This document shows, piece by piece, positions 3,818 to 41,948 of a stretch of 64,000 nt of DNA; position 1 is the stretch's first letter; each line of letters begins with the position of its first letter. The stretch spans positions 620,001-684,000 of the forward strand of contig CP060757.1 of assembly GCA_023205875.1 (NCBI GenBank), read 5' to 3'. The notes beneath the pieces are model-generated. The model ran no database searches. It worked only from the letters and a program-made list of their open reading frames with translations, and was not told the DNA's origin. This stretch comes from Chloropicon primus. Its lineage: Eukaryota. The translations under genes and the position numbers were made by a program.

Positions 3818-6800
3818 TTAATTATCGTTACAAAGCCTCTTGGCCATGACTATCAGGTGCCTCTTTTTCATCGTCCTGAATCTCTCGCTCCCAAGCATGT
3901 GCTCCCTCCCTCGTTCCGTGTACAGACGCTCAATGTAGTCGAACAGGGTCAGAAAGCTGAGGGAGAGCCCCTCCTTATTCAAGATTTCCAGAGTCTCGAC
4001 GTACAAGCCGCAGCTTAGCAGGATCCCAAGGCCTCTCCACAAGTTCTTCTGCGCCTGGATCACGTGAAGAGCCCACCTCTCCAGGGCCTCTTGCCTCTGG
4101 TCTCCTTCCAAGTACGAAGCGGTCATCGTCGCAGCATGCTCCCACATGCCGACATCCTGGAGCTGGATGACGGCGTCCAGGTTTCTGCCGATAAGCCCAA
4201 GCATCACGATCGAGCTCAGTATGTCTCCCTTGCCAGCGCAGTGGGCAGAAAGGACCTTGGAGGCTTTCTCCTGCAAGCTGTTGGCAGACCCTTGGGATGG
4301 GCTGAAGCTCTCCGCGCCCGTCATCTCGGCGGGGGACGTAAGGCGGAAGGATGCAAGACCCAAGGCTCGCAGGGCATCCTTGTAAAAGGACGAGGAGTCA
4401 TCCGGCGAAGCAGCGAGGAGGAAGGCAATCGCAGATTCTCTGTCTCCCAGGACAAAGTACTCGAGGACCCGCCTCTCCCGCTTGGTCGCGTTCAGCGGCC
4501 CCGTATAAGACTCGTGCCAGTATATGCTCTTTGCTGCCTTTGCCTTCTGCTTGGCTGCGTCCCACAAGCACCCGACCCCTCCATAGTTGCCCTCCATGAC
4601 ATTGTTCAAAGTATCTGCAAGCTTGGCCCAGAAATCAAACTCTTCCGAGGTCCTGCCAAAGTTGCTCGAAAGGAGCTTCATGCAATCCAGGGAACCCAAG
4701 GAAGCAGAGGCGAGGCTGGAGCTGTAATGGTCTATCAGAGCGCTGATGCCATTCTGTCCACCTGTCAACTCGGCAAGACACTTTCTATACGATTCGTGCG
4801 CTTGCTGCATCTCCACATCGGTCAGTTCAAGACCCTCCGCCATGCTTCGGAACTCGCTGGAGTACTGCTGGTCCAAAAGCGCGCCTCCCCCCGATTTTGT
4901 GAGTGGCAGGGATTTCTGCATGTACATCGCCAGCCTATCAGGCATCTTCGGATCGAGCAAGATGTTCTTTATGGTTATCTTGCTGGCCAACCCCGCCTGA
5001 TCAGAATAAATAAAGACGCCATCCCTCGTGCATGTTACATACTGCCGGCCAAGGCAATTTTTCGACCAAATGATGTCCAGAACCTCGGTCCCCGGCGTGT
5101 TGCCCTCCACCCTCACGATCTTAAGCGGCATGTGGTCCACGTTAATCCTGTGGAACATGTTCTTGGCAGACAGGACCAAAAAGTCGCTGGAAATCAAGCA
5201 AGGATCCGAAATAATCTTTCTCACGGAGCCCTCCCAGTTTGCCAGCTTGTAGACACCGAACTGGTCTTTGGATTGGCTCCACACCTTCACCTCCCCGGAG
5301 CTTGTTCCGACAATCAGGTTTTGCTCATTGCAGGCGAGGGCCGAAACAAATTCCCCAGGAGACGCGTCAATCACGGGAAAGTTCGGCTTGATGTCCCTCA
5401 GCTTCTTGGTCTGGCCCGAGACCTCAACGGCACCAAGGCTTCTGTCCGGAAGGGCAAAGAGAAGGATCTCCTTCCCTTGGTTTGAGTTGGTCTCGGCCTG
5501 GGAACCGGACCTGGATCTTGCGTTGCGGTTCTCTGCGCTGGACATCAGGCCCCCGAGGCTGGTGTTCAGCCCCGCCGTGCTGCCATCTAGCGTCGTGGCC
5601 CTCTCCCTACTGAGGAAGAAGGGGGGAATGTCTTGAACGAATTCGATGCACGTGAATGGCAGGTTCATCACCCTGATCCTGGAACAGGCCAGGCTCGGCC
5701 TCTCGAGCCTCCAGATTTCCGTTATGCCGTTCTTAAAGATGAGCAGAAAGTGGTTTCCACTTTTGGATGTCCGAACGCCTCTCAAGGCGGACGGGTCGTT
5801 CCCAGCGCCGCCTCTTACCACCCTCTTCTTCCCCGACGCGGTATCAAGGACCACGAGATGGTTCTTAAAAGCATTCTCGGAAACGTTTTCGACCGCAAAG
5901 GACAGGACCAAGTTCCCTCTCAACCATTTCACCCCGAGAAGAGCGCTTCCGTGAACCCTGAAGGACCTCGCTATTTGCCCGCTCAGGAGATCCACGACTT
6001 CGAGGGTGCCAATGTTGCTGCCGAGGGCAACCTGGTTCGAGTCTCCGTTCTCGCCTGGCGGCTGCAGAGCAAAGGCCGTGCACTGCTGCGGCAAAAGCCT
6101 GAGCATGCTCTCCAACCTAATTTCCTCCAGGCTGCCAAAGTCCCTGGCGCTGAAGAGGTGCAGGTACCCACCCGCTTCCTCGTTGGCCGTGGTCACCAAG
6201 AGCTGAATCTTGTCCCCGAACTCGCTGTCGTGGATCTTCTTGTCAGCGAAGACCTGCACCATCTTGTTCCTCGGGTAAAAGCCGTCAAAGGACACTGTGG
6301 GGACGAGGTGCAGCAAAGTGTACACGCTCTTCGATTCGTTGCATTCCCACGCCGAGACGCTGCCGTCCCGGTGGGAGCACAAGATGTGCTGACCCTGGAA
6401 GTTCACCGCCAGGATGTCCTGGAAGGCGCTGTACTTCCTCGGCAAAACCGCCGACCCGATCGGAATCCCGTAGTCGATGTCGAAGGCGATCAGGGTGTGC
6501 TCCAGCACGATGTGGAGCAGGTTTTCCATCATGCCAAACTGGCACCTCATGAACTTGCTGTCGGAAGCAGAGATCTGGTACTCGACCAGCTGGACCTTCT
6601 CCTCCTCGCTCTCGTTGACGAACATGACGTACACGAGGCCCTGATCGTTCGTCACGCAGAGGCACGTATAGTCCAAGTGGCACCGCACCATGTGGGTGAG
6701 CTCCTGCTTGGGGTTCAGGCAGGACTGCCACACCGGCTGCCCCTTGAGGTAGTCCCAGATGACGACCTCGCTCTTCTCGTACAGGGCGACGAGGAGCCTG

Positions 6801-7216
6801 GAGTCCGTGCCGCTCCAGCAGATGCTCCTGACGGAGCTCCCCCCCTGGCTGTCCCTCGGGGACGTCTCCTGCCTATGCCCCGCCCTGTTGTGGGGGTTCA
6901 GCACGTTCAGCATCTGACCCTCGTGGAGTATCCACGTCACCAGGGTGCCGTGGGTGTCCCCGCTCGCGACCACCACCTTCCTCGCCTGGCTGTTGTCCCC
7001 CCCCAGCTTCGATTGGGTGCACGACACGAAGGTTATCGTGGCCTGCGGCGGGTGTCCACCGGAGAGGCAGTTGGCCACTTTCATGCTCTGCCGCTCGACC
7101 ACGTACAGCGTCGATGCCACTCCGAGAACGCAGAAAGGGCCGAAGCAATCGAAGGCGGACGCATTGTCCGCAACAGGGGTGCTCGGAACCGACCAAAGGG
7201 TCTCCTTCGCCTGCAT
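3818..7216 (-). CDS. WDR11: WD-repeat protein WDR11-like
   Basis: Intronless ORF with multiple WD repeats and a C-terminal helical motif LGLIGRNLDAVIQLQDVGMWEHAATMTASYL typical of WDR11. First ATG at 7216. Confidence 0.75.
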   Translation of the reverse strand: MQAKETLWSVPSTPVADNASAFDCFGPFCVLGVASTLYVVERQSMKVANCLSGGHPPQATITFVSCTQSKLGGDNSQARKVVVASGDTHGTLVTWILHEGQMLNVLNPHNRAGHRQETSPRDSQGGSSVRSICWSGTDSRLLVALYEKSEVVIWDYLKGQPVWQSCLNPKQELTHMVRCHLDYTCLCVTNDQGLVYVMFVNESEEEKVQLVEYQISASDSKFMRCQFGMMENLLHIVLEHTLIAFDIDYGIPIGSAVLPRKYSAFQDILAVNFQGQHILCSHRDGSVSAWECNESKSVYTLLHLVPTVSFDGFYPRNKMVQVFADKKIHDSEFGDKIQLLVTTANEEAGGYLHLFSARDFGSLEEIRLESMLRLLPQQCTAFALQPPGENGDSNQVALGSNIGTLEVVDLLSGQIARSFRVHGSALLGVKWLRGNLVLSFAVENVSENAFKNHLVVLDTASGKKRVVRGGAGNDPSALRGVRTSKSGNHFLLIFKNGITEIWRLERPSLACSRIRVMNLPFTCIEFVQDIPPFFLSRERATTLDGSTAGLNTSLGGLMSSAENRNARSRSGSQAETNSNQGKEILLFALPDRSLGAVEVSGQTKKLRDIKPNFPVIDASPGEFVSALACNEQNLIVGTSSGEVKVWSQSKDQFGVYKLANWEGSVRKIISDPCLISSDFLVLSAKNMFHRINVDHMPLKIVRVEGNTPGTEVLDIIWSKNCLGRQYVTCTRDGVFIYSDQAGLASKITIKNILLDPKMPDRLAMYMQKSLPLTKSGGGALLDQQYSSEFRSMAEGLELTDVEMQQAHESYRKCLAELTGGQNGISALIDHYSSSLASASLGSLDCMKLLSSNFGRTSEEFDFWAKLADTLNNVMEGNYGGVGCLWDAAKQKAKAAKSIYWHESYTGPLNATKRERRVLEYFVLGDRESAIAFLLAASPDDSSSFYKDALRALGLASFRLTSPAEMTGAESFSPSQGSANSLQEKASKVLSAHCAGKGDILSSIVMLGLIGRNLDAVIQLQDVGMWEHAATMTASYLEGDQRQEALERWALHVIQAQKNLWRGLGILLSCGLYVETLEILNKEGLSLSFLTLFDYIERLYTERGREHMLGSERFRTMKKRHLIVMAKRLCNDN

Positions 7217-8053
7217 CGCGACAAAACCCAAAAGCGCCGGCGTCGTCCCCCTACGCACTCGTCCTCCTCCCCACTCTCATTCTCCCGCTCCCCCTGTCGG
7301 TCGCTCCGGGCTGGAGGTCAGAGGATCACCCCCAGGTGATGGGCTCGACCTCGCCCTAAAAGGGGTTCCCTCCCTTCTCTATCCGGGAGCGTATCCCGAG
7401 TACAACCGCTCTGCTCCGCGCAAGAGAGGCACCACTCGAAAGATCGTGAGACGCACGACCGTTCTCTCCGAACCACTCGACACTCTCCCCCACCTCGCTC
7501 TCCCTGTCCGCTCTCCAGTGTGATCGCCCCTCTCCTTCCCTCTCTCTCTCTCCCCTCTCTCTCTCCTTTCCCCTCCTCTCCCGGGATTTTGAATATTTCC
7601 AATATTTCCAAATTCGCATTTTCATACTTCACATTTGAAGTTCGCGCCGCCGCCGAGAGCGAGGAGGGATAGAGAGAAGAAGAGAACTCAACAAAGAAGC
7701 GAAAGGAGAGAGAGGAAGAGAAGAGGAGGTAAGGAGGGGGACGACGAGAGAGAGAGTGAGAGAGGGAGGGTGAGAGGGGGCGGAGGGGAAGGGCCTTTTG
7801 AGCGCGTGATGATCTCTTTGCTTCCGAAGGGGCGAGGCTCTTTTTTGCGGGAGGGGGGGCGTGAGAAGGGAGGCTGGTTTCCGTTTGCCCTCTCTTGCTG
7901 GTCCGCGTGGAGTCGGGGGTGGGGAGCTTGGGACGCACGCTGGAAGGCTTCGCACTGTCCGCCGCAAGACGACCTGCCCAATCCTCGGAACGCGTTCGAG
8001 GAAGAGTGCGAACGAACGAACAAAGGAACTCTCGGGCTAACGAACGAACGAAC

Positions 8054-8097
8054 TCTTTGCCTTGTCTGTCTTTGCCTTGTCTGTCTTTGCCTTGTCT
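8054..8097 (+). repeat. 15-nt tandem repeat (TCTTTGCCTTGTCTG) x ~3 upstream of RPL29
   Basis: Read directly from the sequence. Confidence 0.85.
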
Positions 8098-8110
8098 TGA
8101 CGCAGTCACC

Positions 8111-8401
8111 ATGGCCAAGTCCAAGAACCACACAGCTCACAACCAGTCCTACAAGAACCACAGGAACGGTATCAAGAAGCAGAAGAAGCAGAAGTACTCC
8201 AGCACCAAGGGGGTAAGTCACACGCGCGAGTTGCTGCTGGCCACTGGTTTTCGAGGAGGCGAAACACCCGCTCTCGTTCGCGCCAGGTACTGACTCTCTC
8301 CGTCTCTTCCCTCGTTCGCGCCTCGTTCGCGCTCGCAGATGGACCCAAAGTTCCTTAGAAACCAGAGGTACTGCAAGAAGCACAACAAGACGGCCGCGTA
8401 A
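8111..8401 (+). CDS. RPL29: 60S ribosomal protein L29 (eL29); 2 exons (8111-8212, 8339-8401)
   Basis: [23 protein letters not shown]...[21 protein letters not shown]. Intron GTAAGT...GCAG at 8213-8338. Confidence 0.97.
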
Positions 8402-8593
8402 GCGTCGTGTCGTTGTTGCAAACTGCCAGTTCTTCTTATAATTAAGAGAAAAGGGATACGATATGCGATGATGTATTGTTATCTATTTCTAGCTTAGCTA
8501 ATAATATTACCCCTTCCCCTGCGGGCGGAGCACCCGCGGTCGCTCACGACGTCGTTCTCCTTCTTCGGTGGGAGTTCCCTCGCCGCGTCTGGT

Positions 8594-9420
8594 CTACTTT
8601 TGCTGCTGCTGTTGCTGGAGCCTCGCCGCCACGACCGGGTTTCTCGGACTCTTTTTGAACTGCTTCCAGAGCTTGTCCTTGTACTGCTTCAGCGTCAGGC
8701 CCGGCATCGTCTGCTTGATGATCGGGAGCTCCTCCTCCTCAAACGCCAAGTACGCTGCCCTCAACCTTTTTTCGGGGTGGGGGTCAATGACTGCCTGGTC
8801 GGCGAGCCCAGCGGACTGCAAGCCAGAGATCGCCTGCTCCACAGACTTGGCCTGGATGACGTCGGTCTCGTGGTTCATGTTCGGTCTGGACACCATGGCG
8901 TCGTACTCCTCTTCCGTCACCGTCCTGTCCCTCACTTTCCTGGTTTCCTGCTCTATCTTCAGCTTGAGCTGCTCCTGGTCCTTTTGCTTTTGCTTCTCCA
9001 ACCTGGCGAGAAAAGCGCCGAGTTTGAGAGGAGGGGGCGAGTCAGTTTCGGCCGAGGGCGCGCACACGCTCAGGGGCGCGAGCGCTCTCGCGCATCTATG
9101 TGCAATAATACTCACTCGAATTTGGTCACTTTCTGTGCAACGGAAGCCTTTTGGGGTTTCTTAGGCTTCGCAAGCTTCGCGTCCTCCTCAGCTACGAGTC
9201 TCCGCGCCTCGTCCTTCTTCCGGGCGGCCTCTCTCTTCTTCGCCTCCTGCTCTTGCTTCCTCTTCTGTGCCTTGGAGACCTGACCGTCTCCCTGCGCTTC
9301 CCAATACGCATCGTCCTTCGCCTTCGCAGCCTTCGCGTTCGCGTTCGCTTTGGCCTCCTTCTTCCTGTTCCGGGCGTCCTCGGCCTTGGAATTGACGCCA
9401 CTCTTCTTCAGCTTCCCCAT
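8594..9420 (-). CDS. CCDC124: Coiled-coil domain-containing protein 124 (Lso2/CCDC124 family); 2 exons (9420-9116, 9002-8594)
   Basis: N-terminal GVNSKAEDARNRK...DDAYWE and C-terminal HPEKRLRAAYLAFEEEELP...LWKQFKKSPRNP. The intron 9003-9115 restores the frame. Confidence 0.9.
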
Positions 9421-9435
9421 CTCTCTCTCTCCCTC

Positions 9436-9461
<26 letters not shown>
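9436..9461. repeat. (TG)n microsatellite
   Basis: Read directly from the sequence. Confidence 0.9.
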
Positions 9462-9466
<5 letters not shown>

Positions 9467-9581
9467 GTCCTCGCGGTCCCCCCGACCGACGACGACCCCC
9501 CCGAGCTGTCATCCTCCCATGATCGATCCTCTGCCTTGGTTTGAAGGTGTTTTTGTTACAAAGAAGCTTTACATTAAGTGT

Positions 9582-10594
9582 TCACAGAGGTTTGATTCTC
9601 TTCCCGCTGGCTCTCGTCGGTGTCGTCCTGACCGCTTCAGCACCCCGCTTCAGCACCCCTCTCGGCTTCTCTTCCGTGTTCAGGTTTCTCCTCTTCACTC
9701 TCTTCGCGACAATCCTTTGCTTCTGGTTCTTCGTCTGCAAGGCGAGGTCGCGTGTCAGTCGTCCGGGGTCTACAGGCAAACCAATCGGAATGGCGACTTA
9801 CCGGGTACGCGATCTCAACGTTGTTGTAAAGGCCTTTCCTCTTGAGCTCCTCGACGCCTTTCGAGAACCACCGTGGCGTCATTCCCTCCGGCCACGCCGC
9901 GAACCGGTGTTTATCATAGACATAGTACTGTCTATAGCTTGCGATGGGGTCGTTCTCAATCTTGTACTGCGTAGGGAAGAGGCAAGTGAGGCAGGGGTCA
10001 GCGCACTTGCCAAGGCGAGGACAGCGAGACATTGATTCGGCGGATTCTCGGGTTGCGCACGCTTACCTCCTCAGGCATGGCACACAAGGGCGTGGTGATT
10101 CCGATGTCCTGGAGGCCCCTTGGTTCGTTGACCTTGAGCCACTCGAGGACTGCCTGGGTCTTGTGCGTCTTCCCCCCGAAACGATTCGTGTACTCCTCGC
10201 TGAGATGAAGGCCCATCCTGCAAGCCCAGCGATAATTGTCGAGCGACGTCATCAACCAACGCATCGGAGCCAAGCTGGGCCCAGCGCTCCTCGTGTACTT
10301 GTAAGGAATCGACTCAAGCGGCTCCTCCATGCGGTGGTGCACGTTGCACAGCAACTGCGCAGTCTCCACGACCATCTTCGGCACGTGCTGTAGAGACAGA
10401 GACAAAGGCAGAGAGGAGTTGATGATTTGCGTTTCAGGATGAGACAATCAAGATCAATCCTGCCAAGGTCGCTCGAACGTTTTTCTTCCCACGGGAAGGA
10501 GGATCCCGTCGCCCGCCCTTCGACCTGGACTTACCTTATTGCAGTGCGCTTTCGCGCACTGCTCCTCGTCCTCGTCCAAGTAAAAGAGGTTCAT
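9582..10594 (-). CDS. Pyrimidine-dimer DNA glycosylase / endonuclease V-like protein of the phage/bacterial type; 4 exons (10594-10535, 10387-10067, 9966-9802, 9734-9582)
   Basis: The spliced product reads MNLFYLDEDEEQCAKAHCNK|HVPKMVVETAQLLC...NYRWAC...LSEEYTNRFGGKTHKT...AMPEE|YKIENDPIASYRQYY...AAW...PRWF. All three introns are GTAAG...CAG. Confidence 0.78.
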
Positions 10595-10852: not shown

Positions 10853-13324
10853 ATGGATGGTCCCGGGAAGAGGAAGGCGCCGACGGCGACGGTGCGGTCG
10901 GAGTATGAGGTGGAATCGAAGCTCAAGCCGTTCTACACGGGAGGGAGGGTGAGCGTGTGTCGCTCGAAGAAGCTTGCGGCTTGCGCGTGCGGGGAGGAAG
11001 TGACGATACTTTGCCTGGAGACAGGGAAGGTGAAGCAAACGATACCAGGGGACTCTGCTTTGGTCTCGAGCGTATGCCTGAGTGAGAATGGGAGGGACGT
11101 CTTCATCGCCAGCAGGAGTTTGCAGTGCAGCCAGTGGGACTTGGAGACGCAGAGGTGCACCAGGCGCTTCAAGGGACACAAGGCGCCTATCCTGCACATG
11201 TGCATTGACTCGCAGGGCTTGTACCTCTGCACTGCGGGGGCCGACAACGCGGTCAAGGTGTGGGACATCCAAGAGGGTTACCTCACCCACTCGTTCAAAG
11301 GCCACCAGGGGGTGGTCCTGTTCTCGGCGTTTCACCCTCACCCCAAGAGGTACCACTTGTACACTTGCGGCGACGACACGACGGTGAAGGTCTGGGACCT
11401 GAAGAGCAAGAAGTGCCTCGCCACGCTCAAGGCCCACCTCTCCACCGTGACTTCGCTGTCCCTGTCGCCCTGCGGGGAGTTCTTGCTTTCTTGCGGGCAG
11501 GACAGCATGGCGCACATCTGGAGCGTCCAGAGCCTGAAGAAGGTGTCCAGCATCCCCCTGAACGAGGTGACGAACTCTGCCGTGTTCTTGGCCAGCAAGG
11601 ACATGGTGCTCCACTCCAGGAATTCGGAGGAATCATCTGCGGGGACGAAGCCATCGTGCTACTTTGTCACCGTCGGCCAGTCGGGCAAAGTGAGGTTCTG
11701 GAATCCAAAGAAGTTTTTGTGCGAGCACGAGTTTGGTGTCGATGACACGTGCGAGAAGGAGGGAGGGTGCCTCGACTTTGTGGTTGTGGACAATTCCACG
11801 ATACTGTGCACGACCCTGGACTGCAGGATTCTGACGTACCAGCTCAAGGATGAGATTGAGGCGTTCTCTGACAGCTTGGACACCAGGAGGCCGGACGCGT
11901 TCTGGAAAGGGCTGATCACTGGAAGCGAGCAGCTCGTGGGAAACAACGAGCAGATCACGGATCTCTGCTTCCTCGGCCCCAAGCACTTGGTGATCGCCAC
12001 GAACAGTCAATACATCCGAGTGTATGACGCCGAGACGTTCGCCTGCCTCTCGTCCTGCGCGGGCCACACGGACATTGTTCTGGCTCTGCAGGCGTTCGAA
12101 ATCTCTCCGGAGAGGTACCTTGTGGCCTCGGGGGGGAAGGACAACACCCTGCTCGTCTGGGACTCGACGCTGTCGGTGGACGCCCTCTGCTGCGGCAAAG
12201 CCGAGGGCCACTTCTCCGCGATCGAGTGCCTGGCCTTCCCCGCAAAGGTCGCGGGAAAGACTGTAGATTACGTGTGCTCGGGCGACGGTGACGGCTTCAT
12301 CAAGCTTTGGGACATGTCTTGGTTCTCCCCATCCAGGAAGGAGAAGGAGGCCCACTCCATGACCACGCTCTCGACCACTGCGGGCCACGAGAAGGACGTG
12401 AACACGGTAGCCTTTTCGCCCGACAACAAGCTGATCTGCACGGGTTCCCAGGACAAGTTGGCCAAGCTTTGGAGCGTCCCCTCCCTGGCCCCGGTGAGAA
12501 CCTTTAGGGGGCACTCCAGAGGCATCTGGAGCGTCTGCTTCTCCCCCATCGATCAAATCGTTTGCACGGCCTCGGGGGACAAGACGCTGAGGCTCTGGTC
12601 CATCCAGGACGGCACCTGCCTCCGGAGCTTCCAGGGCCACACCTCGAGCGTCCTGAAGGTTTGCTACATCTCATTCGGGGTTCAGGTCATCTCCACGGGT
12701 GCCGATGGCCTGGTCAAGGTCTGGAACGTGAGCAGCGCCGAGTGCGTCAACACTTTTGACTCTCACGAGGACAAGATTTGGGCTCTGAGCGTTTGTGATC
12801 AGGGGGAGAACTTCGCGAGCGGCAGTGGAGATGGGGAGGTCTTTGTCTGGAAGGACCACACGGACCAAAAGGCTCTCGAGGAGCGGAGGGCGGAGGCCGA
12901 CTTGATCAAAAAGAAGCAGAAGATATCGGACGCCGTGTACAGAGGATCGTACACCTCCGCCTTCAGGCTCGCCCTGGACCTCAAGTACCCCGGGCAGCTC
13001 CACAGAATTATTACGCAGGCCATGAAATCAGAGGAGACGGAGGCGGCCGAGGCGTTCTGGGGAGAGGTCGTCGAGAGCCTCAGCGACGAGGACATCAAGG
13101 AGTGCTTCCGGTACGCCTCGGATTGGAACACCAACTCAAAGCTGTACCTGTGCAGCCAGCTGTTGCAGCACAACATTTTCTCCAGGGTCCACCCGGACAG
13201 ACTCTCGGCGATTTCGGGCCTGGCGGACGTTTGGAACGCCCTCACCGCGTATTCGCAGAGGCACAGCAAGAGGATCGACACCCTGAGGAGGAGCACTTAC
13301 ATGCTCGATTACGCACTCAAATAA
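10853..13324 (+). CDS. UTP13: U3 snoRNP / SSU processome WD40 protein Utp13/TBL3
   Basis: FYTGG start motif, many WD40 repeats and a C-terminal Utp13 domain (WNTNSK...AYSQRHSKRIDTLRRSTYMLDY). Confidence 0.92.
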   Translation: MDGPGKRKAPTATVRSEYEVESKLKPFYTGGRVSVCRSKKLAACACGEEVTILCLETGKVKQTIPGDSALVSSVCLSENGRDVFIASRSLQCSQWDLETQRCTRRFKGHKAPILHMCIDSQGLYLCTAGADNAVKVWDIQEGYLTHSFKGHQGVVLFSAFHPHPKRYHLYTCGDDTTVKVWDLKSKKCLATLKAHLSTVTSLSLSPCGEFLLSCGQDSMAHIWSVQSLKKVSSIPLNEVTNSAVFLASKDMVLHSRNSEESSAGTKPSCYFVTVGQSGKVRFWNPKKFLCEHEFGVDDTCEKEGGCLDFVVVDNSTILCTTLDCRILTYQLKDEIEAFSDSLDTRRPDAFWKGLITGSEQLVGNNEQITDLCFLGPKHLVIATNSQYIRVYDAETFACLSSCAGHTDIVLALQAFEISPERYLVASGGKDNTLLVWDSTLSVDALCCGKAEGHFSAIECLAFPAKVAGKTVDYVCSGDGDGFIKLWDMSWFSPSRKEKEAHSMTTLSTTAGHEKDVNTVAFSPDNKLICTGSQDKLAKLWSVPSLAPVRTFRGHSRGIWSVCFSPIDQIVCTASGDKTLRLWSIQDGTCLRSFQGHTSSVLKVCYISFGVQVISTGADGLVKVWNVSSAECVNTFDSHEDKIWALSVCDQGENFASGSGDGEVFVWKDHTDQKALEERRAEADLIKKKQKISDAVYRGSYTSAFRLALDLKYPGQLHRIITQAMKSEETEAAEAFWGEVVESLSDEDIKECFRYASDWNTNSKLYLCSQLLQHNIFSRVHPDRLSAISGLADVWNALTAYSQRHSKRIDTLRRSTYMLDYALK

Positions 13325-36418: not shown

Positions 36419-37701
36419 TTATGCCTTCTTAATTTTACTGTTCGAGTACAAGTAGGCTCCGAAGATGGCGAGGCCAGTACCAACCCAGTTCAAGGGCGAG
36501 ACGTAGTTCTTGAAGAACAGCACGCTGCTCACGATGACCGCCACTCTCTTCATGGTGTTTCCCACGCTGAAAGTGAGCGGGGAGATACCCGTGAGGGCCT
36601 GGTAGGAGACCTGGTTGTAGAGGTGGTAGAAGACGCCGCCCAAGGCCAGGAGCTGCACGAACTTGGCGTTGCTTCCGAGCGCCTGCGCGGCCGCCGTCCA
36701 GCCCGCTGCCCACGTCGACCCCTCCACGAAGTAGGCCACCGGGGCAAGGTAGCACAAGGAGATGATCGAGATGAGGGCGTACATGTTGATCCCGTCGATG
36801 TAAGTGAACTCGTTGAGCAGCTTCTTGGAGAAGACGTTCCTGAGGACCGACCCCAAGTTCGAGATGAGGGCCCCGTTGAAGCCCCCAATGCTGAAGCTGA
36901 CCTCCTTCATCGCGGCCAAGGAGCATCCCGCCACGATTGGCAGGAGTGAGAGGTACGTCATCGCGGAGAAAGACTCTCCCATGAAGACGGATGTCAAGAT
37001 CACCGAGAACACCGGTTCTGCCGCCTTGACGACGTGTGTGAACGACACGGCCATCTTGGAGAAGGACACGCAAGCGGACACGTGGGCTACGGTGTGGAAC
37101 AGGGCCACCGGTGCCAGGCTGAATATGAGCTTCGGGGACACCTTTGGCACCGGCTGGAGCCTGAGGAGCCACATTCCCGCCATCCAGATCACCCCCGAGG
37201 CCAACTGGATCGTCGAAAGCAGCCAGGGCTTTGGGAATATGTTCAGCGTGCTCTTGTTCAAGATGTTGAAGATGATGTTGAAAGCGTACCACAAGGCGAA
37301 GTAGGTCACGAGCTGCGGTGCGCGAAAACAAGGGGGCAGGGGAGCAAAGTCAGCCAGCCGTGCGGGGCGGATGTGAACGTACGGAGATCTCTCCTGTGCG
37401 CACGACCTACCTTCCAGTTCACGCCCGACGTGCTCGGACTCTCCGCAGAGGACGAAGCGGCGCCAACTACGGACTCCCTCGCGTTCTTCCTCTCAGCGAC
37501 CCTGGCATCTCCTGCCTTCCCGAACCGGGGCGAGCACCCGCGGGCCGCGGCCGAGAGAGAACGTCTTGGAATTTCCTCGAGCACGTTTCTGCATCCCGCG
37601 GCCCGCACTGGACGCCTCGCGCTGTTCCCGCCGCACGCTCTCGCGACCCCAGAAGCCTCCCTCGGCCTCACAATCCTCCCCTTCATCGCCGAACTCGCCA
37701 T
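36419..37701 (-). CDS. XPT: Plastid phosphate translocator (TPT family, most like XPT); 2 exons (37701-37411, 37312-36419)
   Basis: Plastid transit peptide, WYAFNIIFNILNK, SFSKMAVSFTHVVKAAEPVFSV and GVFYHLYNQVSYQAL..ISPLTFSVGNTMKRV. Intron 37313-37410. Confidence 0.85.
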
Positions 37702-37946
37702 TCTTCCCCCGTCGTCCTTCACACACGCGCGCGCGGGACAAACAAACTCCTCTCTTCTCTCTCTCTTGGGCTCTTCGTTGCTCGAGCTTTGAATCAGCTG
37801 TTGGAGGTTTTCCCCTGTTGGTGGGATTCCAGTGTATACCAGTTTGGTCACACCCAAAGGACAACCCACTAAGCGTTTTTCTCGTGTTCACTTGCTGGAC
37901 AAGGCAAATCTATAGTTACGAGGAGTTACGAGGAGGGCAGCGAGTG

Positions 37947-37955
37947 AAACCCTAA
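37947..37955 (+). promoter_or_regulatory. Telo-box-like motif AAACCCTAA 9 nt upstream of the Fanzor ATG
   Basis: Exact match to the plant telo-box/telomere unit. It is a single copy, so function is unproven. Confidence 0.35.
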
Positions 37956-37963
37956 TAACCGTC

Positions 37964-40132
37964 ATGGCGCGATCAGGGAAGCGCCGTAAGAAAAAGGAGA
38001 AGCAGGGGAGTGGCTCGACGAGTTCCACAAGGAGGTCGCACTCTGGCGAGAGTCATGCTCAGGGCGCTTCGAAGTCGGGGCAGGAGTCTCCGACGACGGA
38101 GCCGTTACGTCGGTTCTGGAATCAGGGTTTAGCCTGGCTCTACGCGTTGTGCCTGCTTCCTATCGCGGACGACCCCGCCTCTGCGGGTGAGGGTTCGAGC
38201 ACGCCTCGCAAGAAGCGGGGGGGGAAGCGGAAGGAGAAGCCGCTGGACGACCCCGCCTCTGCTTTCGAGGAGGGTTCGAGCACGCCTCGCAAGAAGCGGG
38301 GGGGGAAGCGGAAGGGGAAGCGGCCGGAGGCGGACGCCTCTGCGGGTGAGAGTTCGAGCTCGTCAGGCAAGCCTCGCAAGAAGCCTCGCAAGAAGGGCAA
38401 GAAGAAGAACAAGAAGAAGGGCAAGAAGAAGAAGAACAAGAGGGGGAAGAAAGCAGGGAAGCAGCCGGGTGGCTTGGCGGACGACAGCGTGAAGAAGACC
38501 TGGTTCTCATCGATCAAGAGAGAACTTGTAGAGGTAAAGTGTCCGAAGACGGGATGGAGGTCGTGCTTGAACCTTCCAGAAGATTCTGTGGTATCCGTCG
38601 AGACATTGCAGTCGCCCGCCAAAAGGAAGAGGGAGCAGAAACTGAAGACCTCCAAGCTATTGTCGGAGCGAACGGTGATACGGACGAGGAAGCTTAGGAT
38701 GCGCTTGAACCCTGAGCAGGCGAAGTGCCTTTGCAACTGGATGGGAGCTGCGCGTTTCACATACAACAAGTGTTTGGAGGCGGTCAAGAAGGAGGGTTTT
38801 CCGCTGGTTTGGACCGTCCTGCTGGACAGATTTGTGACGGCCAAACCGCGACGCCCTGAGGTCTTTGAGGGCCTGGAGAAAGAGCTGAAAGAAATCCAAT
38901 GCTCTCCACGGCCATGGACAAAACAGGAGGCAGAGCTTTTCGCGGCCAGAGAGAAGAGACTCGAGAGCCAAATTGGAGGCAGACGATTTCGCGCCGAAGT
39001 GGCCAAGGACCGGGACTACGTTAGCGGGGCCTTTGTAAATCAGAAGCATCCTTGGCTGAAGGATACCCCCTGTGCCATCAGACAAGCTGCCGTGCGAAGT
39101 CTCATCAAGGCATGGGATTCGAACATCGCGAAGCAGGAAGCGATGAAGGAGCGCGGCGAGGAGAAGGGGCACCGCTTCGTTCTCAAGTATCGTCAACGTC
39201 AGCAACCGAGCTCTTGGACCATTGAAATTGATGCAAGAGAGTTAAAGAACGTGGAGACGATCGAAAGGCCAAACACGAGGCACAAGGATGACACCAAGCA
39301 CAACAAACGACGCAAGTGGACCAAGCTGGAGGTGTTCAAGAAGAAGATGGCCGGCGGGCCCCTGTACTTGACGGAGGAGATCCCCGGGGGCAAGATCGAG
39401 GGTGCCGTGAAGATCACAAGAAATCGCCTTGGGCAGTTCCACATGCACATTCCCATCGCGACGCCATGGGATCGCCTGCCACCCCTGAAGCCTGAGAACA
39501 AGCGGAAGGTTGTCGCCCTGGATCCGGGAGTCAGGACCTTTCAGACGTCGTACTCGCCGCAAGAAGGCGTCGGGGAGTATGCCACGGGCGAGCGAGGCTT
39601 CGCGAGGCTGTTCAACCTCTGCTGGAGGATTGATGAGATCATTTCCGAGCGCAAAGACCCAAAGGTGAAGCTCCCTTACCTCGACCGCCGCGACTTGAAG
39701 AGACAGCAATACGCCTGCATGGAGAAAATTCGAGGTCTGACGAACGAGCTTCACAAAAAGGTAGCCAACGATCTATGCAGGAGGTTCGACACAATCCTCC
39801 TCCCGGAGTTCAAGTCCCAAGACATGGTGAAGAAGAACAACAACGGGAGACGCCGAGTGATCAGGAAGAAGACGGCTCGCACGCTCTTGACGTTGAGGCA
39901 CTATGCGTTCAGAACGTTCTTGGCTTCCAAGGTGCTCTTGCACGGCAGTGAGCTGGCGATCGTGACGGAGGAGTACACCTCCAAGACCTGTGGCAGGTGC
40001 GGACACATCAAGGACAACCTGGGTGGAGCAGAGGTGTACAAGTGCCAGAAGTGTGGCTTCAAGTGCGGTCGGGATGTGAACGGGGCACGCAACGTCCTCC
40101 TGAAGCACTTGCGTCAACCAAAAAGTGTGTAA
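37964..40132 (+). CDS. Fanzor (Fanzor2 / IS607-TnpB-like) RNA-guided RuvC endonuclease
   Basis: TnpB-type N-terminal region RTRKLRMRLNPEQ...WMGAARFTYNKCL. RuvC-I VALDPGVRTF (D520), ILLPEF (Pro in the canonical RuvC-II position), alternative acidic site VTEEYTSKTC (E669), Zn ribbon CGRC...CQKC, and RuvC-III RDVNGARN (D704). The ORF is uninterrupted. Confidence 0.93.
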   Translation: MARSGKRRKKKEKQGSGSTSSTRRSHSGESHAQGASKSGQESPTTEPLRRFWNQGLAWLYALCLLPIADDPASAGEGSSTPRKKRGGKRKEKPLDDPASAFEEGSSTPRKKRGGKRKGKRPEADASAGESSSSSGKPRKKPRKKGKKKNKKKGKKKKNKRGKKAGKQPGGLADDSVKKTWFSSIKRELVEVKCPKTGWRSCLNLPEDSVVSVETLQSPAKRKREQKLKTSKLLSERTVIRTRKLRMRLNPEQAKCLCNWMGAARFTYNKCLEAVKKEGFPLVWTVLLDRFVTAKPRRPEVFEGLEKELKEIQCSPRPWTKQEAELFAAREKRLESQIGGRRFRAEVAKDRDYVSGAFVNQKHPWLKDTPCAIRQAAVRSLIKAWDSNIAKQEAMKERGEEKGHRFVLKYRQRQQPSSWTIEIDARELKNVETIERPNTRHKDDTKHNKRRKWTKLEVFKKKMAGGPLYLTEEIPGGKIEGAVKITRNRLGQFHMHIPIATPWDRLPPLKPENKRKVVALDPGVRTFQTSYSPQEGVGEYATGERGFARLFNLCWRIDEIISERKDPKVKLPYLDRRDLKRQQYACMEKIRGLTNELHKKVANDLCRRFDTILLPEFKSQDMVKKNNNGRRRVIRKKTARTLLTLRHYAFRTFLASKVLLHGSELAIVTEEYTSKTCGRCGHIKDNLGGAEVYKCQKCGFKCGRDVNGARNVLLKHLRQPKSV
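38167..38359 (+). repeat. ~80-nt coding tandem repeat in the Fanzor N-terminus (DDPASA..EGSSTPRKKRGGKRK x2 plus a partial third)
   Basis: ggacgaccccgcctctgc...gggttcgagcacgcctcgcaagaagcggggggggaagcggaagg occurs twice. Confidence 0.9.
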
Positions 40133-40460
40133 CTCCTCAGGGTTGCACATACGTTTGTTAGTACGGGCTGCCGTGCGTGGGCGGAAGTATTCGTTCATGT
40201 ACGGTGGAATGGTCGTGGTAGGGCTGAATTACCCTGCCGAGAAACTTACAAACTCGGTGAAACGACCTTTGCAGAAAACTAACAGGTAAGTAGGGGCCGG
40301 CCTTCTCCGTGTTTCTCTCTTTCAGTGGAAAGGAGAACTTGCCTTTGTGCTTCCAGTATTGACTGTGAATTCCCTACCGTCCTTTCGTGACTTTTTCTGT
40401 GTGCTGTTTTTGATCTGATGTCTGAACATCATAACATCAGCTCGGGCTCTTTTTCAAGCC
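40125..40460 (+). ncRNA. Candidate Fanzor omega-RNA scaffold
   Basis: Stems found by eye: 40125-40150 (11-bp stem across the stop codon), 40161-40176, a three-way junction at 40211-40267, 40303-40337, long-range pairing 40201-10 with 40369-80, and 40415-40440. A position overlapping the 3' end of the ORF is typical for TnpB/Fanzor guide RNAs. Confidence 0.6.
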
Positions 40461-40613
40461 GGCTCGAACGACGAACGAGGTGGGCCCGGCCATGCGCCGC
40501 ATGCGCTGATACTGAAGGCCTTTTTATCGATAATGAAAGGACAATCTTTATTACTTTATCTTTTCCTCTTCTTCTTCTTTACATGATGGACCTCTACACG
40601 CCTCGCCCCCGCC

Positions 40614-41948
40614 TTATTGTTGGATGTCCTTGTCTTTGTGAACGAAGTATGCGCCGCTCAGGATGAAATAAGCGAGGACCAAAGTCAGGCCCTTGAGCCA
40701 GTGCGACTGCCCGTCCCCGATCAGAATGACGGCCGTGATGACAGAGGCGAAGAGGGTGACCGTCTCGAAGGGCTCGAAGTTGAGGTCCAGGGACCTGCCC
40801 GACATCCAAGCGATCACCACGGAGAAGGGTATGACGAAGAGGCAGATCTGGGTGCTTGAACCCACGGCGACCCCGATCGTAATGTCCATCTTGTCCTTCA
40901 TGGCAAACATGACCGCGGCCGCGTGCTCCGCCGCGTTCCCCACAATCGGCAGCAAGATCACGGATATGAAGCTCACGGGAATGCCGATGGACTTGGCCGT
41001 CCCCTCGATCGTGTCCACGATGTAGTCGCTGAGAACGGAGATGAAGATGGTGAACACCCCGAGCCAAACTATGCCGGACCAGAAGGTGATCTCCGGCGCT
41101 TCGTCGTTGTCCCCGTCGTCGTCGTCCCCGTTGTCGTCGAAGAGCTCCGCGTGGGTATTGAGCTGAAAGTGCAAGTAGGCCATGTACATCAGCAGGAGGA
41201 TCATGGAAGAGAAGCGAGAGAGCCCCAGATCCGAAGAGTCCCCGTTGAGCTCCGTGTGCGTGGAATGAAGCACCGCTGGAAGCAGCATTGTCGTCACCCC
41301 GAGCAGCAGCAGGCCGCTGGTCGGCGTCACGCTGTCCCTGCTGAAGCCCTGGATCTTGTGCTTCAGCCCGCCAAAGAAGAAGCCGCACCCGAGAACCAGC
41401 AGCAGGTTCGAGAGTATCGAGCCGAGCAGGGAGAGCTGCACCAGCCGTAGCATGTTCTCCCTTATTGCTATAACGGCAACGATCATCTCCGTCAGGTTGC
41501 CGAAGGTGGCGTTCAGCAAGCCACCCAGAGTCGAATTCGTGTACAGGGCTATCTGCTCCGTGAGGTACCCCAGCCTCTCCGCGAGGGGGCACAGGGCTAT
41601 GAGCGAGAAGACGAAGAGAGTGGAGTCCCCACCCGCTCCACTGATCTTGCACAGTATCGCTATCGGCACAGACGTCAGCAGGAGGTTCAGCTTCGTCCCA
41701 TAGAAAACTGGCCCGATGCTTTCCTTCAAATCTTCCAAGGACAGGGACCTGTTCGGCCCTCCCCTCGCCTGGGAATTCAGCTTGTTAAAAGGCGATAACT
41801 TGGAGTCACACGACAAATCGATCTCCAGACTGTTGGCGTTCTTCTTCAGCAGGGTGTCTTTCACCTCATCCTTGACAAGGTCTCTGTTTCCGTCCAGTCG
41901 ATTTATCTCCAGCGTATTCCCGAGCGCCTGCCCGGTCACCCCTCCCAT
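40614..41948 (-). CDS. CAX: Vacuolar Ca2+/H+ exchanger
   Basis: [42 protein letters not shown] and [10 protein letters not shown]. Confidence 0.95.

Follow-up and report, generated by a model that had tools for sequence, protein, structure and literature searches.

Fanzor2 proteins, for which a motif definition is given in PMC13565253 and PMC10711439, are eukaryotic relatives of the TnpB proteins of IS607 elements. In IS607, crossover takes place at a core shared by element and target, and the scaffold of the guide RNA includes this core (PMC10711439). The known target-adjacent motifs (TAMs) of Fanzor2, as given in PMC10432273 and PMC11832414, are GGG, CCG and TAG, and Fanzor2 has been reported to cut after bases 17-19 (PMC10432273). 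In Chloropicon primus, Yoon et al. (2023; 10.1101/2023.08.09.552727, PMC10711439) described a Fanzor2* family with inverted ends and a variable 5-nt target-site duplication (TSD), for which, in the text covered, they found no autonomous partner. An open evolutionary step is how guides stayed programmable when Fanzors left IS607 for eukaryotic transposons; in print it is explained by absorption of the new ends and the TSD into the scaffold. Here we have analysed a Fanzor2-encoding element in a stretch of 64 kb of the C. primus genome (GenBank assembly GCA_023205875.1, contig CP060757.1, positions 620,001 to 684,000 of the forward strand; hereafter the window, in which all coordinates are given). 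The protein family and the element are already known; the new part is a splice junction between the old scaffold and the flanking DNA, which appears not to have been described before and is well supported.

In the text of PMC10530073 covered, introns are discussed for Fanzor loci and open reading frames (ORFs), not for the guide RNA, and the word 'spliceosome' occurs in PMC10432273 and PMC11423790 in a reference title only. Our literature searches returned no report of a spliced Fanzor guide RNA and, as the only report on this element, that of Yoon et al., whose figures may show a predicted RNA for it. The locus suggests a second, eukaryote-only answer to the evolutionary question, in which the old scaffold is kept and the new end is spliced away. 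If this is true, the maturation of the omega-RNA would depend on the spliceosome, as a mirror image of the IStrons, and the splicing machinery would choose the targets of an RNA-guided nuclease.

The junction between positions 40285 and 40441

The element and the intron that crosses its right end are made up of the following features.

37794..37798, + strand: left TSD, TCAGC (from sequence; the identical 5 bases stand at 40437-40441)
37799..40436, + strand: multicopy non-autonomous element with TGTTGG...ATAACA ends and short degenerate inverted ends (from depth, departure of other copies and Yoon 2023)
40437..40441, + strand: right TSD, TCAGC, source of the splice acceptor (from sequence)
40286..40440, + strand: 155-nt GT-AG intron, donor GTAAGT at 40286-40291, acceptor AG at 40439-40440 inside the TSD (X3 and X4 have the joined form, X1 and X2 the long one)
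40415-40419, + strand: candidate branch site CTGAT, its candidate A 22 bases before the acceptor

Assembled contigs from seven of the 21 listed sequencing runs were compared with the window; the small-share metatranscriptome runs X13-X17 lay outside the comparison. In the DNA runs X1 and X2 the contig depth is 125-147 outside 37799-40436 and in the thousands inside, a figure that is not a copy number. Other copies of the element depart in the run contigs just behind 40436/40437, and the DNA 3' of 40436 has single-copy depth and consists of host sequence that differs among copies. The element is of the Fanzor2* type captured between terminal inverted repeats (TIRs) and a TSD (non-autonomous, TGTT...AACA ends, TCAGC duplication, multicopy), and belongs to the family already described by Yoon et al. 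No second copy of any part of it was found within the window.

In the runs X3 (study P2) and X4 (study P1), the contig that covers 40438 onward is preceded by 25-26 letters identical to the end of the scaffold, so that these loose ends represent 40285 joined to 40441, with 40286-40440 (GT...AG), and hence the last 151 bases of the element, removed. The joined form was seen in two of the four RNA-like runs, from two studies, and the other two, X5 and X6, have no cover past 40443. X4 is labelled 'DNA?', and was treated as RNA because its contig halts at 37411, the exact donor of the intron of a neighbouring gene, where X1 and X2 continue. X1 and X2, which are DNA from the same sample as X4, have contigs unbroken in the long form over 40399-40900, and a contig of the metagenome run X8 crosses the donor unbroken. 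Furthermore, the contigs of all four RNA-like runs examined break or depart at 40285-40288, and their depth falls from before to after the donor (X3, 1888 to 105; X5, 282 to 34; X4, 8050 to 1523-2182; X6, 28 to none); the depth bins of the DNA runs do not drop across it (X1, 10948 to 12113; X2, 6321 to 10441). In X3, X4 and X6 the scaffold also continues behind 40285-40288 into four other flanks, which is consistent with one donor and chance matches to G, GT or GTA; with this locus, five different flanks are joined to the scaffold in RNA-like contigs. Unspliced ends occur as well, in X3, X4 and X5, and with other flanks at 40436 and 40437.

The stretch 40357-40438 (~80 bases) is free of AG dinucleotides: the last internal AG ends at 40356, and the acceptor is the next. 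No joint was found at the six internal AGs in the contigs of the RNA-like runs. The candidate branch site was picked out by what we take to be the branch-point consensus. With a GT donor, an AG acceptor, absence from RNA and presence in DNA (run types being partly inferred), the segment has these features of a U2-type intron; its removal is very probably splicing, presumably carried out by the spliceosome. Two side observations concern the intron. A 739-nt contig of X4 shares 40342-40393 with three differences and then runs into a T-rich stretch ending in TAG, possibly as a variant copy with an acceptor of its own, and just after the donor, where the CCGTGTTTCTCT motif stands at 40300-40312, further units of it are repeated in tandem in other copies.

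The folded scaffold and its ancestral right end

Upstream of the donor lies a folded region that begins at the end of the Fanzor2 ORF.

40125..40150, + strand: hairpin 1, over the stop codon, 11 bp (minimum-free-energy (MFE) and centroid folds)
40155..40162, + strand: closing helix, 5' strand, pairing with 40278-40285 (same helix in L001-L005)
40168..40207, + strand: 18-bp hairpin with 7 G-U pairs (MFE and centroid folds)
40217..40238, + strand: hairpin GGTAGGG/CCCTGCC (MFE and centroid folds)
40278..40285, + strand: closing helix, 3' strand, and putative ancestral IS607 right end and scaffold 3' end, ACTAACAG (from motif alignment with the ends of L001-L005 and from contig breaks)

The segment 40125-40288 folds far better than its shuffles (z -5.2, 0/200 as good), and both 40288-40436 (z -0.69, 44/200) and the flank 40437-40560 (z -0.14, 83/200) are at the level of chance. 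In sliding windows of 120 nt the signal peaks at 40120-40239 (z -7.1) and is within ~1.5 of zero from 40200 on. Real structure is limited to about 40125-40285, and the folding signal ceases at the position of the splice donor. No Rfam match was found over 37500-41000 at E up to 1. In X4 there is also a joint that skips 85 scaffold bases, 40172-40258 (depth 682, ends GT..GG), which is possibly a deletion variant or a jump of the reverse transcriptase across hairpins.

Among the 80 metagenome loci collected, five close relatives have DNA beyond the stop codon (L001-L005). In these and in the window a helix joins the linker after the first hairpin to a distal motif, which is followed by NG. The core of the helix is GTTAGT/ACTAAC in the window and in L001, GTTGGT/ACCAAC in L002, GCTGGT/ACTAGC in L003, GCTGAC/GTCAGC in L004 and GCTCTA/TAGAGC in L005, so that over the six sequences 35 of the 36 core cells are Watson-Crick and one is G-U. 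The helix was spotted by eye, and MAFFT misaligns it owing to inserted hairpins; it is nevertheless the only helix recovered by RNAalifold, with two-sided changes in four of its eight pairs. L001, L002 and L003 also have a hairpin at the same place as hairpin 1, with unrelated sequence, and blastn of the 3' region against the 80 loci returned matches to coding DNA only. The locus has a conserved structured RNA at the 3' end of the ORF with a terminal long-range pairing, as an omega-RNA, or right-end element RNA (reRNA), has.

Several observations bear on where the ancestral element ended. In L001, the bases before the element and those after the helix form one open frame over a shared GG (by eye). 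Copy pairs of more distant relatives diverge 0-3 bases past a helix of 5-9 bp (8 ends checked), and in most of those of 57 copy pairs for which both ends are available (read by eye; some pairs are partial) the terminal trinucleotide recurs at the left junction, as CTG in cyanobacterial pairs and as CAG in L056/L059; this pattern matches the shared-core rule of IS607. We infer that the ancestral IS607 right end was ACTAACAG, 151 bases inside the present element, and the 3' end of the scaffold is most likely 40285. That the ancestor was an IS607 element follows from a decayed serine-recombinase gene overprinted on the N-terminal extension of the Fanzor2 ORF, which is intact in the relative L005.

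37964..40132, + strand: Fanzor2 ORF, 722 aa, with DPG, E six residues before the zinc finger, and final D (PF07282, PF12323)
38470..38640, + strand: remains of a decayed IS607 serine-recombinase (TnpA) gene, in a different frame of the N-terminal extension (tblastn)

The remnant shows 33% identity to the intact TnpA of L005 (E 6e-5, tblastn, five-sequence database), a protein with PF00239 and PF00376; a weaker piece at 38020-38199 contains a stop. The long, basic, Ser-rich extension (37964-38660; also in L001, L002, L003 and L005) is overprinted on the TnpA gene, of which L005 has an intact copy and L001 and the window decayed ones. The present element differs from an active IS607 in that TnpA is decayed, a TSD is present and the DNA element extends 151 bases beyond the scaffold.

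A first-pass annotation of this DNA had proposed a structured non-coding block at 40125..40510 that starts at the Fanzor stop codon. The block as a whole does beat its shuffles (z -3.5, 0/100), because of its first ~165 bases, and the rest contributes no signal. The motifs it quoted are present at or near where it placed them, and its 11-bp stem across the stop codon (40125-40150), the GGTAGGG/CCCTGCC arm and the many G-U pairs all recur in the folds. It missed the 18-bp hairpin at 40168-40207, with which two of its pairings, GTACGG/CCGTGC and ACGGTGGAAT/ATTCCCTACCGT, compete. The proposed CCGAG arm overlaps CCCTGCC by two bases, the GGTCGT/ACGACC closing stem appears in the 386-nt fold only, and TTCTCC/GGAGAA lies inside the part that folds like chance. 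The CTGATGT/ACATCAG stem cannot be common to the copies, because four of the seven ACATCAG bases come from the TSD. A structured RNA at the Fanzor 3' end that overlaps the stop codon was judged right in kind, as was a guide derived from flanking DNA. The annotation overlooked that 40155-40162 and 40278-40285 pair as a closing helix, that the element stops at 40436, that a donor stands at 40286 and that transcripts lack 40286-40440.

Guide, target motif and rival explanations

If the spliced RNA serves as the guide RNA, the following positions behind the junction matter.

40441..40460, + strand: host flank, predicted to act as the guide once spliced (in X3 and X4 its first bases follow the scaffold)
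40457..40460, + strand: possible repair scar, a complex difference between strains, guide positions +17 to +20 (X1, X2, X3, X4)

On balance we favour the spliced RNA, made up of the folded scaffold (~40125-40285) and a copy-specific guide from the flank, as the likely working guide RNA, and its prediction as the form loaded by Fanzor2 we hold to be fairly probable. The proposed course of events is as follows. An IS607 element with TnpA and Fanzor2 would have lost TnpA and come to lie between TG...CA ends. Capture would have put 151 fixed bases behind the scaffold, which would give every copy one and the same guide; splicing out 40286-40440 would rebuild a scaffold with a flank-derived guide starting at 40441, which would be trimmed to about 15-21 nt. 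The acceptor AG would double as the TAM, and the nuclease would cut ~17-21 bases into the right flank of empty (probably also of occupied) alleles, so that repair would retain or copy the element. For the TAM we predict an AG ending, with an even chance of being right, since the right end of IS607-type elements finishes in a repeat of the target core. Such an ending is plausible because the known TAMs are GGG, CCG and TAG and the right ends of relatives finish in GG, CCG, CTG or CAG. Since every acceptor is AG, each spliced guide would adjoin a TAM.

The strain difference at 40457-40460 consists of one inserted base and two substitutions; no other turned up in the 863 bases of flank (399 left, 464 right) for which X1 was compared with the window, and an 8-base window makes up ~1% of the flank compared. 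It may be a scar of cutting and repair, although we lean somewhat against this. Doubtful, and to be regarded as speculation, is the wider idea of a spliceosome-programmed nuclease, in which the host's choice of 3' splice site would select the guide, the acceptor AG as TAM would guarantee a cuttable target, and cuts at the element's own copies would leave scars inherited by the guide. The spliced guide had one match of 20 bases, in L081, preceded by CCGT and lying in a phage-like reading frame, which was treated as chance; its matches within the window were at chance level only.

A number of points weigh against this reading. The data are assembled contigs, unstranded, from runs of guessed type, which give neither ends nor levels, and contig depth is a poor measure of level. 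No joint was listed as such at 40285|40441, the evidence being one loose end of 25-26 letters per run; for the four other flanks the scaffold side was seen and the acceptors were not. For the DNA runs, the lack of the joined form holds among the loose ends listed, so that some short DNA copies may exist. The AG-free tail is only mildly unusual (3447/100000 shuffles have one as long). The MAFFT alignment behind RNAalifold mis-registered two of five rows, the right ends of L002-L005 were set by motif and not independently, and the 63-aa frame after the end of L001, which was used to fix that end, had no Pfam match. If IS607 inserted at a CAG|GT site, this suffices for the coincidence of donor and old end, which then needs no selection. 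The closing helix has a pairing probability of 0.36 in the modelled joined RNA, in which the guide is half paired, and 0 in the unspliced forms, so that the fold would need protein. The strain difference is a single event, picked out in hindsight, and it would fit a guide starting at 40442 just as well. Finally, the occupied allele has the same AG and protospacer, and the model predicts self-cutting, an issue that the mollusc Fanzor2* elements may share (TTAN TSD; TAG TAM, PMC10432273).

The most serious rival is that the unspliced RNA is loaded, and that all copies share a fixed guide, 40286 to ~40305, directed against Fanzor-free TG...CA elements or another target; splicing would then switch the guide off, as in IStrons, or be incidental, and an IS607 insertion at a CAG|GT site would be enough to account for the donor's position at the old right end. 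This had been our first reading, and it was lowered once joined contigs appeared in RNA-like runs. The unspliced ends in X3, X4 and X5 speak for it, as do a CAG followed by TGT at 37830, 30 bases inside the left end, which could be the old left junction, and the first two intron bases, which lengthen the closing helix in the fold of 40125-40288. However, the unspliced form is the minority in RNA-like runs and does not form the closing helix in the model, no contig joining the left end to 40286 (an empty element) was among the three joints listed, and the fixed guide had no match in viral contigs and none beyond chance in the window. We regard it as unlikely. Still less probable is a scaffold that reaches the new end and takes in the inverted end together with the TSD (~40125-40441), with a guide from 40442 and an intron that is a by-product in the mRNA's 3' untranslated region. 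Such a scaffold would agree with the suggestion in the text of Yoon 2023 covered (PMC10711439) that TIR and TSD seem parts of the scaffold in Fanzor2*, with the 247 nt given for the ApmFz2 RNA (PMC11832414), and with the strain difference as well as our own reading does, but 40288-40436 folds like chance, a terminal helix at 40436 is no better than 5 bp, and 40286-40440 is missing from most RNA.

We consider it very unlikely that the joined form arose without splicing, either as a variant in the DNA (a deletion allele, or short copies whose end is the old right end) or by jumps of the reverse transcriptase. In favour of this, the run types were guessed, a 3-base repeat, CAG, flanks the skipped part, and the lack of the joined form in DNA holds among the loose ends listed; yet at this locus both DNA runs from the sample of X4 carry the long form without a break, the junction is GT-AG with a GTAAGT donor, and one donor meets five different flanks. 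To the first-pass proposal of a scaffold running to the U-rich tract 40450-40457, with the guide at 40458-40480, we give hardly any weight. A 10-bp pairing does end at 40456, but all the DNA after 40436 is single-copy host sequence that differs among copies and folds like chance; the element ends at 40436, as indicated by the TSD, the depth drop and the departure of copies, and the proposed guide lies 22 bases outside it. With the spliced RNA as the favoured guide RNA, the corrected scaffold for this nuclease would be ~160 nt, ending at 40285. As a small alga with a native multicopy element, C. primus would allow Fanzor cutting within the genome to be examined by comparison of flanks between strains.

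The protein, its setting and known systems

The 722-aa ORF is a Fanzor2 by its motifs, its eukaryotic host and its relation to IS607 TnpB, and RNA-guided cleavage with a TAM is predicted, for which the strain difference at +17 to +20 is an indirect clue. Its catalytic motifs at residues 518-522, 669-676 and 701-707 are all intact, and the three catalytic/zinc-finger motifs are all kept in 21 of the 23 C. primus proteins examined. The closest solved relative is mimivirus Fanzor2 9b0l (E 6e-20). The protein cluster has 46 members; a name is present for 39 of the 40 inspected, and the named members listed are C. primus IS605 transposases or hypothetical proteins in two accession series. A single-protein scan found no relative in viral contigs, and alignment scans of viral and prokaryotic contigs gave distant relatives only. 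At 38167-38442 the N-terminal extension contains an 81-bp tandem duplication and Lys-rich repeats, whose number varies among copies. Two other proteins, P0029 and P0062 (~920-950 aa), have XPG-type nuclease domains (PF00867, PF00752) fused to a Fanzor-like zinc-finger region.

The TGTTGGA...ATAACA ends (37799-37810, 40425-40436) and 5-bp TSD resemble what we take to be the ends of Copia long terminal repeats (LTRs) or Ginger elements. The right flanks of two other copies have no obvious primer-binding site, and TG...CA ends with a 5-bp TSD fit a Copia-like solo LTR or Ginger-type element. A gene for a Ca2+/cation exchanger (PF01699; 40614-41948, - strand) runs towards the element, with the predicted guide immediately beyond its 3' end, and the spliced contigs extend into the gene. 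The gene models P0135/P0136 and P0004/P0146 fuse Fanzor with host sequence, in one case a SET-domain gene, which suggests insertions in or beside host genes. The odd C-termini of P0004, P0146 and P0135 are fusions of gene models with host sequence and carry no information on the RNA junction. At L002:3092-3140 a GT stands at the end of the helix, with a pyrimidine-rich stretch and CAG ~45 bases on; this might be a similar intron, or chance.

In protein family and element the locus is the same as the C. primus Fanzor2* of Yoon et al. The main text of that paper (PMC10711439) does not contain 'splic' or 'intron', and the text covered holds no RNA data for the element; TIR and TSD are suggested there to join the scaffold, whereas here the old scaffold end would be kept and the new end spliced out. 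With the omega-RNAs of IS607 TnpB and Fanzor2 (ISXfa1, ApmFz2, NlovFz2, MmeFz2), as described in PMC10432273, PMC11832414 and PMC10711439 with 3-nt TAMs and a guide from the flank, the locus shares a structured RNA over the ORF end and a long-range pairing with the last scaffold bases. In those systems, however, the flank directly follows the scaffold in DNA and the closing pairing is a loop pseudoknot, whereas here 155 bases lie between scaffold and guide and are removed in RNA, and the pairing is nested. Introners, as described in PMC11282704, occur in marine green algae and are alike in that a transposon supplies the donor and the TSD the acceptor AG, but they are short and removed whole, restoring the host gene; here the acceptor is TSD-derived as well, but the donor lies within the 2.6-kb element, whose own transcript loses just the final 151 bases and keeps 2.5 kb. 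The IStrons, as described in PMC10690162 and PMC13565253, also have a splice site at the boundary of scaffold and guide and splicing that competes with the terminal pairing of the scaffold. Their group I self-splicing, however, excises the entire element and separates scaffold and guide, whereas at this locus, which has no Rfam match and loses only the last 151 bases of the element, a GT-AG intron joins the two.

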